From assembly GCF_011045215.1 (NCBI RefSeq), contig NZ_CP049201.1: a stretch of DNA of 64,000 nucleotides, one strand, 5' to 3'. Made by a program: the position numbers and the translations under genes. The notes beneath the pieces were generated by a model that was not told the DNA's origin, did no database searches, and was given only the letters and a program-made list of their open reading frames with translations. This stretch comes from Escherichia coli. GTDB lineage: Bacteria > Pseudomonadota > Gammaproteobacteria > Enterobacterales > Enterobacteriaceae. This document shows, one piece after another, positions 6,292 through 64,000 of this stretch (its first letter is position 1; each line of letters starts with the position of its first letter).

Positions 6292-6821
6292 TCCAGGTAT
6301 TCGTCTTTCCATTTCACGTAATTATTCGCGGAGTAACGTAACCCAGCCTTCTCTTCATCACTTAACGGGCGGATCTGTTTGACGGGACTACCGAGATACA
6401 GATATCCGCTCTCCAGCCGTTTATTTTGTGGGACCAGACTACCCGCACCAATCATCACATCATCTTCTACTATTGCGCCATCAAGTAAAATTGAGCCCAT
6501 CCCAACCAAAACTCGATTGCCAATGGTGCAGCCGTGGAGCATCACCTTGTGACCAACAGTGACATCTTCGCCAATGGTTAATGGGTTGCCATCTGGGTTG
6601 TACGAGGATTTATGAGTGACATGCAACATACTGCCATCCTGGATATTGGTGCGTGCTCCGATCTGTACATAATGTACATCTCCACGAATCACAACGAGCG
6701 GCCAGATCCCCACATCATCAGCCAGACGAACGTCACCAATCACGACACTGCTATCGTCGATCATTACGCGCTGACCGATTTGTGGAAAAAGATCGCGGTA
6801 TGGGCGTAAAACATCAGACAT
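6267..6821 (-). CDS. yrdA: Gamma-carbonic-anhydrase-like hexapeptide-repeat protein YrdA
   Basis: ATG at 6821 gives 184 aa MSDVLRPYRDLFPQIGQRVMIDDSSVVIGDV... (left-handed beta-helix repeats); the 293-aa track ORF is an N-terminal over-extension running into the rrn promoter region. Confidence 0.85.
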   Translation of the reverse strand: MSDVLRPYRDLFPQIGQRVMIDDSSVVIGDVRLADDVGIWPLVVIRGDVHYVQIGARTNIQDGSMLHVTHKSSYNPDGNPLTIGEDVTVGHKVMLHGCTIGNRVLVGMGSILLDGAIVEDDVMIGAGSLVPQNKRLESGYLYLGSPVKQIRPLSDEEKAGLRYSANNYVKWKDEYLDQGNQTQP

Positions 6822-12910: not shown

Positions 12911-15412
<2,502 letters not shown>

Positions 15413-19700: not shown

Positions 19701-19711
19701 ATGTTTCTGAT

Positions 19712-22700
19712 TTATCCTTTAAAGCAACGGCGGATCACCACAAAGAACACCGGTACGAAGAAGATTGCCAGCAACGTTGCAGAGACCATTCCTCCCATTA
19801 CCCCGATACCCACAGCGTTCTGCGCGCCACTGCCGGCACCGTTACTGATAGCCAGCGGTAATACGCCGAGAATAAAGGCGAGAGAGGTCATCAGGATAGG
19901 ACGCAGACGCATACGTACTGCCATTAGTGTCGCTTCAACAACATCTTTACCCTCTTTCTCCATGAGATCTTTAGCGAACTCAACAATCAAAATAGCGTTT
20001 TTGGCCGACAAGCCAATTGTCGTTAGCAAGCCCACCATAAAGTAGACGTCATTTTTTTGATTAAAGAGTGTCGCCGCCAGCAGCACGCCGACAATCCCTA
20101 ACGGCACGACCAACATAACCGAGACAGGAATTGACCAGCTTTCATAGAGTGCAGCAAGGCACAGGAAAACAACCACAAAGGAAATTGCTACCAGAGCGGG
20201 AGCCTGGTTTCCCGATAAGCGTTCCTGATACGACATACCCGTCCAGTCATAACCAATGCCCGCAGGTAATTTTGACGCAAGGTTTTCCATCAACGCCATG
20301 GCATCGCCGGAACTGGTTCCTGGCGCGGCTTCCCCCTGAATCTCCATTGACGGCAGACCGTTGTAGCGTTCCAGTCGCGGAGAGCCATACACCCAATGTG
20401 AAGTGGTAAAGGCAGAGAATGGCACCATTTCGCCGTTGGCGCTGCGGACATAAAGTTTATCGACATCTTCTGGCAGCATACGGAATTTGGCATCCGCCTG
20501 AACATACACCTTTTTCACGCGACCACGGTCGATGAAGTCGTTAACGTAAGTCCCACCCAGCGCCGTTGAAATGGTCTGATTGATGTCAGAAAGTGAAACA
20601 CCTAATGCCTGCGCCTTTTCCTGGTCAACTTCCAGTTTAAACTGCGCGGTGTCTTCCAGGCCATTAGGACGCACGCTGACTAAGCTGGCAGGATGTTGCG
20701 CCGCCATACCAAGCAACTGGTTACGGGCCTGGGTTAGGGCATCGTGACCCAGCCCAGCCTGATCAATTAACTCAAAGTCGAAACCCGTTGCCGTGCCCAG
20801 TTCAACAATGGCTGGCATGTTGAATGGAATGACAAAACCGTCGCGGATCTTGCCCAATTCCATTTTGGCACGATGGATTACCGCTTCCGCACTGTTTTCG
20901 TCACCATTACGCTCTTCCCACGGTTTCAGACTGACGAAGGCCATACCGGCGTTTTGTGCCTGGCCGCTGAAGCTAAAGCCGTTAACCGTAAAGACACTTT
21001 CAACGTTCGCTTTCTCGTTCTTCAGATAGTAATCCGTCACTTGATCCAACACTTTTTGCGTCCGCTCTTGCGTCGCGCCAGCGGGTAACTGAATCATGGT
21101 CAGAAAGACACCCTGATCCTCTTCAGGTAAGAAGGAAGACGGAAGACGTAAAAACAACACCACCATTCCTGCAACAATCAGCGCATAGATCAGTAAATAT
21201 CGTCCTGTGGAACCGAGGATTTTGCCGACGCTGTTGGTGTAGTGGTTAACGCTATGATCGAAGGTGGTATTAAACCAGCCGAAGAAACCGCCCTTATTTT
21301 CGTGATGCTCAGCAGAGACGGGTTTAAGCAGCGTTGCACATAACGCAGGGGTAAGAATCAATGCCACCAGAACAGAAAGCGCCATTGCCGAAACGATGGT
21401 GATAGAGAACTGGCGATAAATTGCCCCAGTAGAACCGCCGAAGAATGCCATCGGAATAAATACCGCTGACAGCACCATCGCGATACCCACCAGTGCGCCC
21501 TGGATTTGCGACATTGATTTTTCCGTCGCTTCTTTTGGCGGGAGCTTATCCTCCATCATCACGCGCTCGACGTTCTCCACCACCACTATCGCATCATCGA
21601 CGAGCAGCCCGATGGCAAGCACCATCCCGAACATCGTTAGTGTGTTGATGGAGTAACCAAAAGCGGCGAGGATGGCAAACGTCCCTAACAACACCACGGG
21701 TACCGCAATGGTGGGGATCAGCGTTGCTCGCATATTCTGCAAGAACAGATACATCACCAGGAACACCAGCATAATAGCTTCGAACAGTGTTTTTACCACT
21801 TCGTGAATAGAAAGCTGGACGAATGGCGTGGTGTCATAAGGGTAGAGAACCTTCATTCCCTGCGGGAAGAATGGCTGTAATTCCGCCAGTTTTGCCTTAA
21901 TGGCTTTCGCGGTATCGAGAGCATTCGCGCCGGTTGCCAGCTTAATACCCAGGCCCGCCGCCGGTTTTCCGTTGATGCGAGCGATAACGTTATAGTTTTC
22001 ACCGCCAAGTTCAACCCGTGCGACATCTTTCAGGCGTACCACCGAGCCGTCACTGTTTACGCGCAGGGTCACTTTGCCGAATTCTTCCGGATTTTTTAAC
22101 CGCGTCTGAGCAATAATCGAGGCATTCAACTGTTGCCCTGGTAACGCTGGCGTTCCGCCCAACTGTCCGGCAGCGATCTGATCGTTCTGTACCTTCAACT
22201 GGTTAATCACATCAACCGGTGTCAGTTTATATTTGTTTAGCAGATCGGCGTCCAGCCAGATACGCATCGCATACTGTGCGCCGAAAAGCTGTACGTCACC
22301 GACGCCATTCAGACGGCTAAGCGTATCTTTAACGTTAGAGGCCACATAGTCCGAGATATCGTCCTGTGTGGTGTCTGGGTTATCAGAGACAAAGCCCGCC
22401 ACCATCAAATAGCTGCTACTGGACTTTTCAACACTGATCCCCTGCTGCTGAACCTCCTGCGGCAGCAACGGCGTGGCGAGCTGGAGTTTGTTCTGCACCT
22501 GCACTTGCGCGATATCAGGATCGGTCCCGGACTGGAAGGTAAGGGTAATTGTCACGCTACCGGCGGAATCGCTGGTGGAGGACATATACATCAGGTTATC
22601 GATACCGTTCATATTCTGTTCGATAACCTGCGTCACCGTATCCTGCACGGTCTGCGCATCAGCGCCCGGATAGTTTGCTGAAACAGAAACCGCTGGCGGT

Positions 22701-22816
22701 GCAATGGTTGGATACTGAGCGACGGGCAATTGTAGGATCGCCAGTGCGCCAGCCATCATCAGAATAATGGCCAGCACCCATGCAAATATCGGTCGTCGAA
22801 TAAAAAAGTTTGCCAT
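19712..22816 (-). CDS. acrF: RND multidrug efflux pump inner-membrane component AcrF
   Basis: 1034-aa [48 protein letters not shown]...; 12-TM RND architecture. Confidence 0.95.
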
Positions 22817-41589: not shown

Positions 41590-44500
41590 GTGAGGCGATT
41601 GCCGGGGATTTTACTGCTTACTGGAGCCGCGCTCGTTGTGATCGCTGCCCTGCTGGTTAGCGGCCTGCGTATTGCTTTACCGCATCTTGACGCCTGGCGT
41701 CCGGAAATCCTCAACAAAATAGAATCCGCGACTGGCATGCCGGTTGAAGCCAGTCAGCTCTCAGCCAGCTGGCAGAATTTTGGCCCGACGCTTGAAGCAC
41801 ACGACATCCGTGCAGAACTAAAAGATGGCGGCGAATTTTCGGTTAAACGCGTTACTCTGGCGCTGGATGTCTGGCAGAGCCTGTTACATATGCGCTGGCA
41901 GTTTCGCGACCTCACTTTCTGGCAGCTGCGCTTTCGCACCAACACTCCTATCACCAGCGGTGGTAGAGATGACAGTCTGGAAGCCAGTCACATCAGCGAT
42001 CTGTTTCTTCGTCAATTTGACCATTTCGATCTCCGCGACAGTGAAGTCAGTTTCCTGACGCCATCCGGTCAGCGCGCCGAGCTGGCGATCCCACAACTCA
42101 CCTGGCTGAACGATCCACGTCGACACCGTGCGGAAGGCCTGGTAAGCCTCTCCAGCCTTACCGGACAGCACGGCGTGATGCAGGTGCGCATGGATTTGCG
42201 CGATGATGAGGGGTTGTTAAGCAATGGTCGCGTCTGGCTCCAGGCGGATGACATCGACCTGAAGCCGTGGCTCGGTAAATGGATGCAGGACAATATTGCG
42301 CTGGAAACGGCACAGTTCTCCCTTGAAGGCTGGATGACGATCGACAAAGGCGATGTAACCGGCGGTGACGTCTGGCTGAAACAGGGCGGTGCCAGCTGGT
42401 TGGGCGAGAAGCAAACGCATACGCTGTCGGTGGATAATCTGACCGCGCATATTACGCGTGAAAATCCGGGCTGGCAGTTCTCTATTCCCGATACACGGAT
42501 CACGATGGACGGCAAACCCTGGCCGAGCGGAGCATTGACGCTGGCCTGGATACCGGAACAGGACGTTGGCGGCAAAGACAATAAACGCAGTGACGAACTC
42601 CGGATTCGCGCCAGTAATCTGGAGCTGGCAGGCCTGGAGGGCATACGCCCGCTGGCCGCGAAACTTTCACCTGCACTGGGTGATGTTTGGCGCTCCACAC
42701 AACCGAGCGGCAAGATTAACACGCTGGCGCTGGATATCCCGCTTCAGGCGGCAGACAAGACCCGTTTTCAGGCATCGTGGAGCGATCTGGCCTGGAAGCA
42801 ATGGAAATTATTACCGGGTGCGGAACACTTCTCCGGGACGCTTTCCGGCAGCGTTGAAAATGGTTTGCTTACCGCGTCGATGAAGCAGGCAAAGATGCCT
42901 TACGAAACGGTATTCCGTGCGCCACTGGAAATCGCCGACGGCCAGGCAACTATAAGCTGGCTGAACAATGACAAAGGTTTCCAGCTGGATGGGCGTAATA
43001 TTGACGTTAAAGCCAAAGCCGTCCATGCGCGCGGCGGTTTTCGTTACCTGCAACCTGCTAACGATAAACCCTGGCTGGGTATTCTGGCTGGCATCAGTAC
43101 CGATGATGGTTCACAAGCCTGGCGCTATTTCCCGGAAAACTTGATGGGTAAAGACCTGGTTGATTACTTAAGTGGCGCGATTCAGGGCGGTGAAGCGGAT
43201 AACGCGACGCTGGTTTATGGTGGCAATCCGCAACTCTTCCCCTATAAACACAACGAAGGTCAGTTTGAAGTGCTGGTGCCGCTGCGCAACGCGAAGTTTG
43301 CCTTCCAGCCGGACTGGCCTGCATTAACTAACCTTGATATTGAACTGGACTTTATTAACGACGGTTTATGGATGAAAACCGATGGCGTTAATCTGGGCGG
43401 CGTGCGCGCGAGTAATCTCACCGCAGTGATCCCTGACTACTCGAAAGAAAAACTGCTGATTGACGCTGACATTAAAGGTCCGGGTAAAGCCGTTGGCCCT
43501 TACTTTGATGAGACACCGCTGAAAGATTCTCTGGGGGCGACCCTGCAAGAACTCCAGCTCGACGGCGATGTGAATGCTCGCTTACATCTTGATATCCCGC
43601 TGAACGGCGAACTGGTAACCGCGAAAGGTGATGTGACGCTGCGTAATAACAGTCTGTTTATCAAACCACTCGACAGCACCCTGAAAAATTTGAGCGGTAA
43701 ATTCAGCTTTATCAATGGCGATCTGCAAAGTGAACCACTGACAGCAAGCTGGTTTAATCAGCCGTTGAACGTGGATTTTTCCACCAAAGAAGGGGCAAAA
43801 GCCTACCAGGTCGCGGTGAATCTCAACGGTAACTGGCAACCAGCGAAAACCGGCGTTCTGCCTGCAGCGGTGAACGAAGCATTGAGTGGCAGCGTGGCGT
43901 GGGATGGTAAAGTGGGCATTGTTCTGCCTTATCATGCTGGCGCGACGTATAACGTAGAGCTAAACGGCGATTTGAAGAATGTGAGCAGTCACTTACCTTC
44001 ACCGTTAGCCAAACCTGCGGGTGAACCACTGCCGGTAAACGTTAAGGTTGATGGCAATCTCAACAGCTTTGATTTAACCGGACAGGCTGGTGCGGATAAC
44101 CATTTCAATAGCCGCTGGTTGCTCGGTCAAAAGCTGACGCTCGACCGTGCTATTTGGGCGGCAGACAGTAAAACGCTCCCGCCGTTGCCGGAACAAAGTG
44201 GCGTTGAACTCAATATGCCGCCGATGAATGGTGCCGAGTGGCTGGCCCTGTTCCAGAAAGGCGCGGCGGAGAGTGTCGGTGGTGCAGCGAGTTTCCCACA
44301 ACACATAACGTTACGTACGCCTATGTTGTCACTGGGAAATCAGCAATGGAATAACCTGAGTATTGTTTCGCAACCGACGGCAAATGGCACCCAGGTTGAG
44401 GCGCAAGGGCGTGAAATCAACGCCACGCTAGCGATGCGTAATAACGCGCCGTGGCTGGCGAATATCAAATATCTTTATTACAACCCGAGCGTGGCGAAAA

Positions 44501-59811: not shown

Positions 59812-60146
59812 ATGGCTAAAATCTGAATCAGCGTAAAAACTGGAATGTTGCTTTTTGCTGCCACCTGACAGACAGGTAAAACAAAAACCACATCGCCAAT
59901 AAGGGACTAAGTCAACTATTTCAGACTAAAGCGCATCTCTTTTTCCCCATTTCCGGCATCGACTCACCACAAAGGTCGCAAAATCTGGTAAACTATCATC
60001 CAATTTTCTGCCCAAATGTCGGGTATTGCTCATTTTTTGTTTGATTTTCGAACAAAGAGAGTCGTTCCTTACTGGGTAACACAACTTCTGACTGGCCACC
60101 TGGTGGCTGGTAGCAGTAAAAATTCTGACTATACCTGGAGGTTTTC

Positions 60147-61329: not shown

Positions 61330-62697
61330 TTAATAAAATAGCGTGATTGTGGCAATCATATTCACCACGAAACCGACTGCCATGGGGATCGCTGTCCGCT
61401 TCACCACCGCAAAAGGCGAAACGCCTGCAATTCCTGACGTAACGACCACCACCGCAGTAATCGGCGAAACCGCGCGTGCTAGCGTCGTGGCAAAATGCAT
61501 CGGCATAATCATTACAACCGCTGGTACATGTAGTCCGGCTGCGATATTCGGAATAAGACTGGCAAATGACATAAACGGCGCATTGCCAGAGCCCATCACA
61601 ATGGCACAAATGGCAATGACCAGCGCCATAATAATCATCACGCCAATACCGCCCAGACCAGAATGCTCCGCACCCCTGATAACCGCATCGACAGTGCCAA
61701 TCGTCGTTAAGCCTTTCGCAAATATTTCACCCGCGACCACCAGCGTTACCACGTTGGCAAACTGCGTACCCATGCCGTCAAAAAACGCCTGCACATCGTC
61801 CATTGTTTCGCGCAAGTTATGCTTGCGGAAGAACTCAACAAACATCGTCACCGTCAAACTCAGTAACATCACCACCACCAGATGCAGTTCTGACTGCATC
61901 AGCCCGATGTGGGCGAGGAACAGCGAGCCGAGCATCAGGATTAACGGCATCACAGGTAAAATGGCGTAATAGTGCGGCGGGACATTATCGAGAGCTTTTT
62001 GCTCTGCCTGTTCGTGATTGATATTTTTATCTTTTTTGTCAAAAGCGCGTTGCACGAAAAAGTGGGAGATCGCCACCGAGATAATGACGCAAGAGGCGAC
62101 CGGAAGCTGGTAGTGGAAGAAGTAAGTGGCAATTTTCATTCCCGCTACCTGGGCAGCAAAAATGGAGTTCGTTTCCAGAATCCCCCACTCAATGGACATT
62201 GTGGTTGCGATAACCGCCACCGCAGAGAGACGGCTTACTCCCAGACTCACCAGCGTCGGAAATAAGGTGACCATCAGCAACATACCCAGACCGGAGGCGC
62301 TGGTAATAAACTGCGCCATGATTTGGCCGATGACGTAAGTTGCCGACAGAATAATATACGGCGAGCGAATGAGTTTTAACGGGCGGCTTAACAAGCTCAC
62401 CATCGCGCGACTGGCCCCTATGCGCTCCATGTAGCGGGCATAACCGCCCACCGCCATAATCGACAGCCCCAATCCGGCAATGCGGTTGGACAGCATGCGC
62501 AGGATTTCATTATAAATATCGACGATCAAGTAGCCGCTGCTTTTGGTGGGATCGAGTACACCACCGAACCCTAACCAGACACCGCACATCATCAGGAAGA
62601 TACCTGCGGCAGCCAGCACCACCTGAGGTTTGTAGTTTTTCAGGATCAAATAGCCCATCGTAATTAATACGATGACAGATATAATTATGCCGAACAT
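61330..62697 (-). CDS. dcuD: Anaerobic C4-dicarboxylate transporter DcuD (DcuC family)
   Basis: 455 aa from ATG at 62697 ([25 protein letters not shown]...); polytopic membrane protein. Confidence 0.9.
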
Positions 62698-63076
62698 TGT
62701 TGAACTCCGTGTCAAAAGAAAACGGTCAATCCCATAAACGGCAGATTGAAAACAATGATGTTATATTTTTTGCAAGTCTATTTATGGTGCGGATGTCGTG
62801 TTTTTAATTGTAGGTGAGGTGATTTTTCATTAAAAAATATGCGCTTATGATTATTTTGTAAGAACACATTCATAATATTCATAATGCTCGTGAATAGTCT
62901 TATAAATAATTCAATCGGGATGTTTTTATCTGCGTTACATTAATTTTTCGCAATAGTTAATTATTCCGTTAATTATGCTAATGATGAGGCACAAAGAGAA
63001 AACCCTGCCATTTTCCCCTACTTTCAATCCTGTGATAGGATGTCACTGATGATGTTAATCACACTGACCTTACAGA

Positions 63077-63868
63077 ATGGGCCTTATGAACGCATTTGAT
63101 TCGCAAACCGAAGATTCTTCACCTGCAATTGGTCGCAACTTGCGTAGCCGCCCGCTGGCGCGTAAAAAACTCTCCGAAATGGTGGAAGAAGAGCTGGAAC
63201 AGATGATCCGCCGTCGTGAATTTGGCGAAGGTGAACAATTACCGTCTGAACGCGAACTGATGGCGTTCTTTAACGTCGGGCGTCCTTCGGTGCGTGAAGC
63301 GCTGGCAGCGTTAAAACGCAAAGGTCTGGTGCAAATAAACAACGGCGAACGTGCCCGCGTCTCGCGTCCTTCTGCGGACACCATCATCGGCGAGCTTTCC
63401 GGCATGGCGAAAGATTTCCTTTCTCATCCTGGTGGGATTGCCCATTTCGAACAATTACGTCTGTTCTTTGAATCCAGCCTGGTGCGCTATGCGGCTGAAC
63501 ACGCCACCGATGAGCAAATCGATTTGCTGGCAAAAGCACTGGAAATCAACAGTCAGTCGCTGGATAACAACGCGGCATTCATTCGCTCAGACGTTGATTT
63601 CCACCGCGTGCTGGCGGAGATCCCAGGTAACCCAATCTTCATGGCGATCCACGTTGCCCTGCTCGACTGGCTGATCGCCGCACGTCCAACCGTGGCTGAT
63701 CAGGCTCTGCACGAGCATAACAACGTTAGCTATCAACAGCATATTGCGATCGTTGACGCGATCCGCCGCCACGATCCTGACGAAGCCGATCGTGCGTTGC
63801 AATCGCATCTCAACAGCGTCTCTGCTACCTGGCACGCCTTCGGTCAGACCACCAACAAAAAGAAATAA
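63077..63868 (+). CDS. nanR: GntR/FadR-family repressor of sialic acid catabolism NanR
   Basis: 263-aa ORF with GntR HTH ([31 protein letters not shown]) and FCD domain. Confidence 0.93.
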
Positions 63869-63921
63869 TGCCACTTTAGTGAAGCAGATCGCATTATAAG
63901 CTTTCTGTATGGGGTGTTGCT

Positions 63922-63944
63922 TAATTGATCTGGTATAACAGGTA
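63922..63944 (+). promoter_or_regulatory. NanR operator: three direct GGTATA repeats in the nanA promoter
   Basis: GGTATAACAGGTATAAAGGTATA, 46 bp upstream of the nanA ATG. Confidence 0.8.
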
Positions 63945-63989
63945 TAAAGGTATATCGTTTATCAGACAAGCATCACTTCAGAGGTATTT

Positions 63990-64000
63990 ATGGCAACGAA
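63990..64000 (+). CDS. nanA: N-acetylneuraminate lyase NanA, first codons only (window ends)
   Basis: ATGGCAACGAA at the expected position after nanR and its operator; identification rests mainly on synteny. Confidence 0.55.

Follow-up and report, generated by a model that had tools for sequence, protein, structure and literature searches.

The closest described relative of this locus is the nanA control region of Escherichia coli K-12 MG1655, in which the three GGTATA repeats of the nanA promoter, (GGTATA)3, are the published operator of the sialic acid repressor NanR (PMC8012715, PMC3658417, PMC8786299). NanR is a dimeric protein, and three dimers bind (GGTATA)3 cooperatively with a Kd of 20–39 nM and a Hill coefficient of approximately 2 (Horne et al., PMC8012715). 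The operator-NanR complex has been covered by EMSA, ultracentrifugation and cryo-EM, and the same work reports that one repeat alone is poorly bound, that lengthening the spacers by 6 nt attenuates NanR binding, and that Neu5Ac weakens the binding of NanR to DNA 28-fold (PMC8012715). A review (PMC8786299) puts the three repeats on top of the −10 element and attributes repression to steric occlusion. The nanATEK genes are activated by CRP and repressed by NanR (PMC12562284).

The window analysed here is a stretch of 64,000 nucleotides from E. coli that ends at the start of nanA. A first-pass annotation of this DNA had reported three tandem GGTATA repeats in the nanA control region and had called them the recognised NanR operator. 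The repeats are present as an exact 23-mer, and the identification is borne out, as the spacer that contains them is identical to that of MG1655 (121/121), where the operator is published. The interval that had been delimited, 63869 to 63989, corresponds exactly to the nanR-nanA intergenic region, with the nanR stop codon ending at 63868 and the nanA ATG beginning at 63990. The features of the locus are as follows:

61330–62715, minus strand: dcuD, encoding a DcuC-family transporter, divergent and upstream of nanR (profile match)
63077–63868, plus strand: nanR ORF, 263 aa (ORF list, NCBIfam NF003011, identity to MG1655 and PDB NanR)
63869–63989, plus strand: nanR-nanA intergenic control region, 121 bp, 100% identical to MG1655
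63878–63893, plus strand: putative CRP-like site AGTGA-N6-TCGCA, matching TGTGA-N6-TCACA at 8 of 10 positions
63925–63931, plus strand: TTGATCT, conserved 5' flank of the operator, present at all three MG1655 operators, with TTG.TCT kept in Enterobacter
63932–63954, plus strand: near-certain NanR operator, three direct GGTATA repeats, GGTATAACAGGTATAAAGGTATA, an exact match identical to the K-12 operator
63932–63937, 63941–63946 and 63949–63954, plus strand: GGTATA hexamers, no mismatch
63934–63948, plus strand: candidate −10 hexamers TATAAC (63934–63939) and TATAAA (63943–63948), each matching TATAAT at 5 of 6 positions
63981–63984, plus strand: Shine-Dalgarno sequence GAGG of nanA, read from the sequence, 5 nt before the ATG
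63990–64000, plus strand: start of nanA (N-acetylneuraminate lyase), of which 11 nt precede the window edge (aligned annotation of NZ_OZ197100.1 and MG1655)

The gene order dcuD-nanR-nanA is the same as in annotated E. coli genomes. The nanA start at position 63990 follows the annotation of NZ_OZ197100.1, a genome with 100% identity to the window over positions 63000–64000. The complete gene set nanA-nanT-nanE-nanK-nanQ is found in that genome downstream of the identical kilobase, and MG1655 exhibits the same layout. Outside the nanR-nanA kilobase, identity between the window and NZ_OZ197100.1 is only approximately 99.1%, and the two do not represent one strain.

The nanR gene product matches the NCBIfam model NF003011 "transcriptional regulator NanR" with 408.9 bits against a cutoff of 260, and lower matches, below cutoff, were obtained to the LldR, GlcC, PdhR and FadR models. 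The protein is identical at 262 of 263 residues to MG1655 NanR and to the PDB entries 6ON4, 6WFQ and 6WG7, the sole change being T207A. Residues 1–263 align full length to 6ON4, with the N-terminal extension present and residues 1–32 identical. At the DNA level nanR differs from the K-12 gene at 23 of 792 nt, of which 21 differences are synonymous and two lie in codon 207, giving T207A. On sequence grounds this predicted protein is NanR, a member of the FadR subfamily within the GntR superfamily.

The T207A substitution raises the possibility that the operator is intact while the switch is functionally altered, as this is the single residue that differs from the characterised K-12 NanR and it is located in the C-terminal effector domain. 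Such a change in function is very unlikely, because alanine is likewise found at the corresponding position of the Enterobacter Bisph1 ortholog. The substitution is conservative, nanR contains no frameshift or stop, and many O157:H7 genomes, with NanR as the gene's annotation, match a 1-kb query carrying the nanR allele of the window at 99.8% identity. The first-pass annotation had described the sialic acid switch as intact at the window edge; this is correct for the repressor gene and the operator but does not reach the operon, because the window stops 11 nt past the beginning of nanA.

The three GGTATA hexamers are separated by spacers of ACA (3 nt) and AA (2 nt), and Tandem Repeats Finder describes the operator as a repeat of period 8 with 2.7 copies and 93% matches. 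The sequence GGTATAACAGGTATAAAGGTATA is the sole match in the 64-kb window on either strand with up to three mismatches allowed, and a double or triple GGTATA repeat was seen in none of 100 dinucleotide-preserving shuffles of the window. Single GGTATA hexamers number 24 against 14.7 expected, three of these belonging to the operator. The non-random feature is the tight tandem arrangement of GGTATA, single hexamers being common.

The distance to nanA had been given as 46 bp upstream of the ATG, which is inexact: 35 nt lie between the last base of the array and the ATG, the first G is 58 nt upstream, and the quoted figure fits only the centre of the repeats, approximately 47 nt upstream. Likewise, the array had been placed immediately downstream of nanR. 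The order of nanR followed by the operator is confirmed, but 63 nt separate the nanR stop codon from the first repeat.

No other GGTATA was found between window positions 60135 and 63932, and there is thus no alternative operator of this kind near nanR or nanA. The dcuD-nanR spacer likewise contains no GGTATA, indicating that the promoter region of nanR itself carries no operator. A scan of the nanR-nanA spacer found no terminator-like site, and an Rfam scan of positions 62700–64000 identified no family, the only hit being a chance snoRNA match (E = 0.63). A 41-aa ORF on the minus strand (63844–63969) runs over the operator; it was rejected as spurious, as it has a TTG start, lies in a regulatory spacer and is unannotated in the genomes examined.

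Alignment with the MG1655 nanA promoter, which had been proposed as a check on the operator, gave 121 identical positions of 121 with the repeat periodicity kept. The dcuD-nanR spacer differs from K-12 at 4 of 361 positions. Were its 121 bases neutral and diverging at the rate of nanR, the nanR-nanA spacer should show approximately 3.5 differences; it shows none and so looks constrained. Of 5426 complete E. coli genomes, 5410 gave a megablast hit to window positions 63000–64000, in every case under an annotation of nanR next to nanA; identity to this 1-kb query, most of which is nanR, reaches 99% in only 1024 of the 5410. The first 112 bp of the spacer (63869–63980) are present in 5408 of the 5426 genomes and at least 99% identical in 5384 of these 5408. 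The 36 bp with the repeats at their centre, used as a probe, recur without change in 5355 of the 5426 (98.7%).

In two Enterobacter species, whose NanR and NanA are approximately 83% and 90% identical to those of E. coli, the identical 23-mer is found between nanR and nanA although the surrounding spacer has diverged. The Enterobacter alignment contains further conserved blocks, namely AGTGA-N6-TCGCA (63878–63893), TGCTTA.TTG.TCT immediately 5' of the repeats, and the ribosome-binding site, where the region GAGGTAT.TATGGCAA is conserved. The near-invariance across approximately 5400 E. coli genomes, together with the identity in Enterobacter, confirms strong constraint on a textbook regulatory site.

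A natural variant of the array is present in E. coli PSJ-07 (NZ_AP027619.1; L123, approximately 1264–1295), in which a 9-bp duplication of GGTATAACA has produced GGTATAACAGGTATAACAGGTATAAAGGTATA, a nanA operator with four repeats. The nanR and nanA genes of this strain are otherwise annotated as intact.

The PSJ-07 duplication shows that slippage happens at the nanA operator, and period-8 and period-9 GGTATA arrays are plain microsatellites in unrelated genomes. Both observations would suit a triple repeat produced by chance or slippage that has no regulatory role. This explanation is extremely improbable: the sequence is exactly that of an operator studied by EMSA, ultracentrifugation and cryo-EM in published work, the repeats are retained almost without exception among the complete E. 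coli genomes, the 23-mer is invariant in Enterobacter between diverged flanks, and the spacer has no differences from K-12 against 23 in 792 nt of nanR.

The sequence at 63932–63954 is almost certainly the operator through which NanR controls the nanATEK-yhcH (nanATEKQ) promoter by the published repressor-operator mechanism, and no observation speaks against this reading. In this strain the assignment draws on sequence identity, genomic position, the intact repressor gene and conservation; binding, stoichiometry, induction and CRP dependence are carried over from the literature. In the absence of sialic acid, three NanR dimers would occupy the three GGTATA repeats, cooperating through their N-terminal extensions. 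In this state the −10 region would be covered and RNA polymerase kept out. Binding of N-acetylneuraminate in the C-terminal effector domain would weaken the interaction with DNA approximately 28-fold, and the freed promoter, together with cAMP-CRP bound upstream, would allow transcription of the genes for sialic acid uptake and catabolism. The site in the window is the canonical, textbook form of the NanR operator, which is already known, and nothing about it is new. The strain keeps the standard sialic acid repressor and operator that govern the use of a host-derived nutrient, and the result has annotation value only, with no new biology.

A strict consensus scan of the nanR-nanA spacer for sigma-70 promoters did not identify a full promoter, a result compatible with dependence on an activator. 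Kalivoda et al. (2003, 2013) reportedly used S1 mapping to locate the start site and obtained a footprint of approximately 30 bp that covers the promoter. We infer that the CRP activator site is the element at 63878–63893, and this exact position, like the choice of −10 hexamer, is deduced. CRP-like sites matching at 8 of 10 positions number 27 in the window against 28 expected, so that by sequence alone the element is no better than chance; both of its half-sites are invariant in the two Enterobacter species. The centre of this CRP-like site would fall near −61.5 if TATAAC is the −10 hexamer, with transcription beginning near 63946–63947, or near −71.5 if it is TATAAA, with transcription beginning near 63955–63957. 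It is scarcely credible that the TATA-rich repeats serve only as −10 elements with repression exerted elsewhere, for although the array contains two hexamers, TATAAC and TATAAA, that each differ from TATAAT at a single position, and although a perfect TATAAT arises from the last repeat in the loci of Hungatella and Synergistales described below, the operator and −10 roles are not mutually exclusive, the literature puts NanR on the repeats, overlapping the −10 element, and the window has no other GGTATA from 60135 up to the array.

Elsewhere in the window, comparison with NZ_OZ197100.1 revealed an insertion of 1.95 kb at 12912–14864, which is an IS100 element of the IS21 family encoding two genes:

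12977–13759, minus strand: IS100 istB
13756–14778, minus strand: IS100 istA

This copy is 99.5–99.8% identical to IS100 copies on E. coli chromosomes and plasmids. The element is inserted in the 3' part of yhdZ, which encodes the ATPase of an amino-acid ABC transporter, and the remnant is an ORF of 206 aa (14792–15412, minus strand) compared to approximately 252 aa in the reference genome. The acrF gene (approximately 19710–22814, minus strand) is open throughout in the window, whereas in the closely related genome NZ_OZ197100.1 it has an internal stop and is annotated as a pseudogene.

Beyond the enterobacteria, a contig scan for the pattern GGTATA-N2-3-GGTATA-N2-3-GGTATA returned at least 120 loci, mostly period-8 or period-9 microsatellites in Bacteroidota MAGs, with nan-like genes nearby at six loci among the matches listed. 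Pseudoalteromonas sp. TB64 (L003, 9135–9221) contains approximately ten GGTATAACT units with no nan genes nearby. A Shewanella locus (L012, 431–490) and many of the Bacteroidota MAG loci are likewise GGTATA microsatellites, either GGTATAGAA arrays or period-8 arrays, and nan genes are absent nearby. The occurrence of such microsatellites without nan genes means that the GGTATA pattern alone is not diagnostic of a NanR operator outside the enterobacteria.

Exact triple GGTATA repeats spaced by 2–3 nt also adjoin genes for regulators with GntR and FCD domains in distant phyla, namely in Hungatella (Firmicutes; L050, 6003–6024, and L058, 6788–6809), in Synergistales (L025, 8520–8541) and in a Sphingomonadales MAG (L066, 1040–1062). 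The regulators are 35% (Synergistales) and 53% (Sphingomonadales) identical to NanR. At the Hungatella GGTATACCGGTATACTGGTATA site, TTGACC-GGTATACCGGTATACTGG-TATAAT, the repeats occupy both the spacer and the −10 of a promoter close to consensus. This promoter precedes a cluster of cyclase, ketopantoate-reductase-like and DHDPS (NanA-family) genes, the aldolase gene being located approximately 1.8 kb downstream. In the divergently encoded Hungatella regulator (L050, 5247–5978) the HTH domain starts at residue 37, and the protein may have an N-terminal extension like that of NanR. Judged from these sequences, an extension of direct-repeat GGTATA operators beyond the enterobacterial NanR is possible but doubtful.

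Among known systems, the K-12 nanATEK-yhcH operator (Kalivoda 2003/2013; Horne 2021, PDB 6WFQ/6WG7) features the same 23-mer, the same spacers, the same 121-bp region and the same position between nanR and nanA. The window differs from the K-12 system only by NanR T207A and the 21 synonymous changes in nanR, with no difference in the control region. The K-12 nanXY (yjhBC) and nanCMS operators have TTGATCT followed by GGTATAACAGGTATAAAGGT in common with the nanA operator. The nanX/yjhB and nanC operators of MG1655 occupy L125 positions 6625–6647 (plus strand) and 42921–42943 (minus strand). The nanX/yjhB operator has a 23-mer identical to that of nanA, whereas the third repeat of nanC is a degenerate GGTGCA. 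The nanXY and nanCMS operators lie approximately 410–420 nt upstream of their start codons, compared to 35 nt for nanA, and they differ from the nanA operator in the sequence further upstream. In an ungapped alignment of the three K-12 operators, the bases tgtatgg..tg are shared approximately 15–25 nt further upstream. With shared bases beyond the repeats, what was copied seems to have been a promoter-operator module and not the repeats alone. The nanA, nanX and nanC modules of MG1655 match the three-operon sialoregulon of the literature.

The FadR-subfamily GntR regulators FadR, PdhR and LldR have the same fold as NanR, composed of a winged-helix GntR domain and an FCD domain. Their operators are palindromic, with one dimer on an inverted repeat, whereas the NanR operator consists of direct repeats that accommodate three dimers, a binding mode called unique among reported GntR regulators (PMC8012715).
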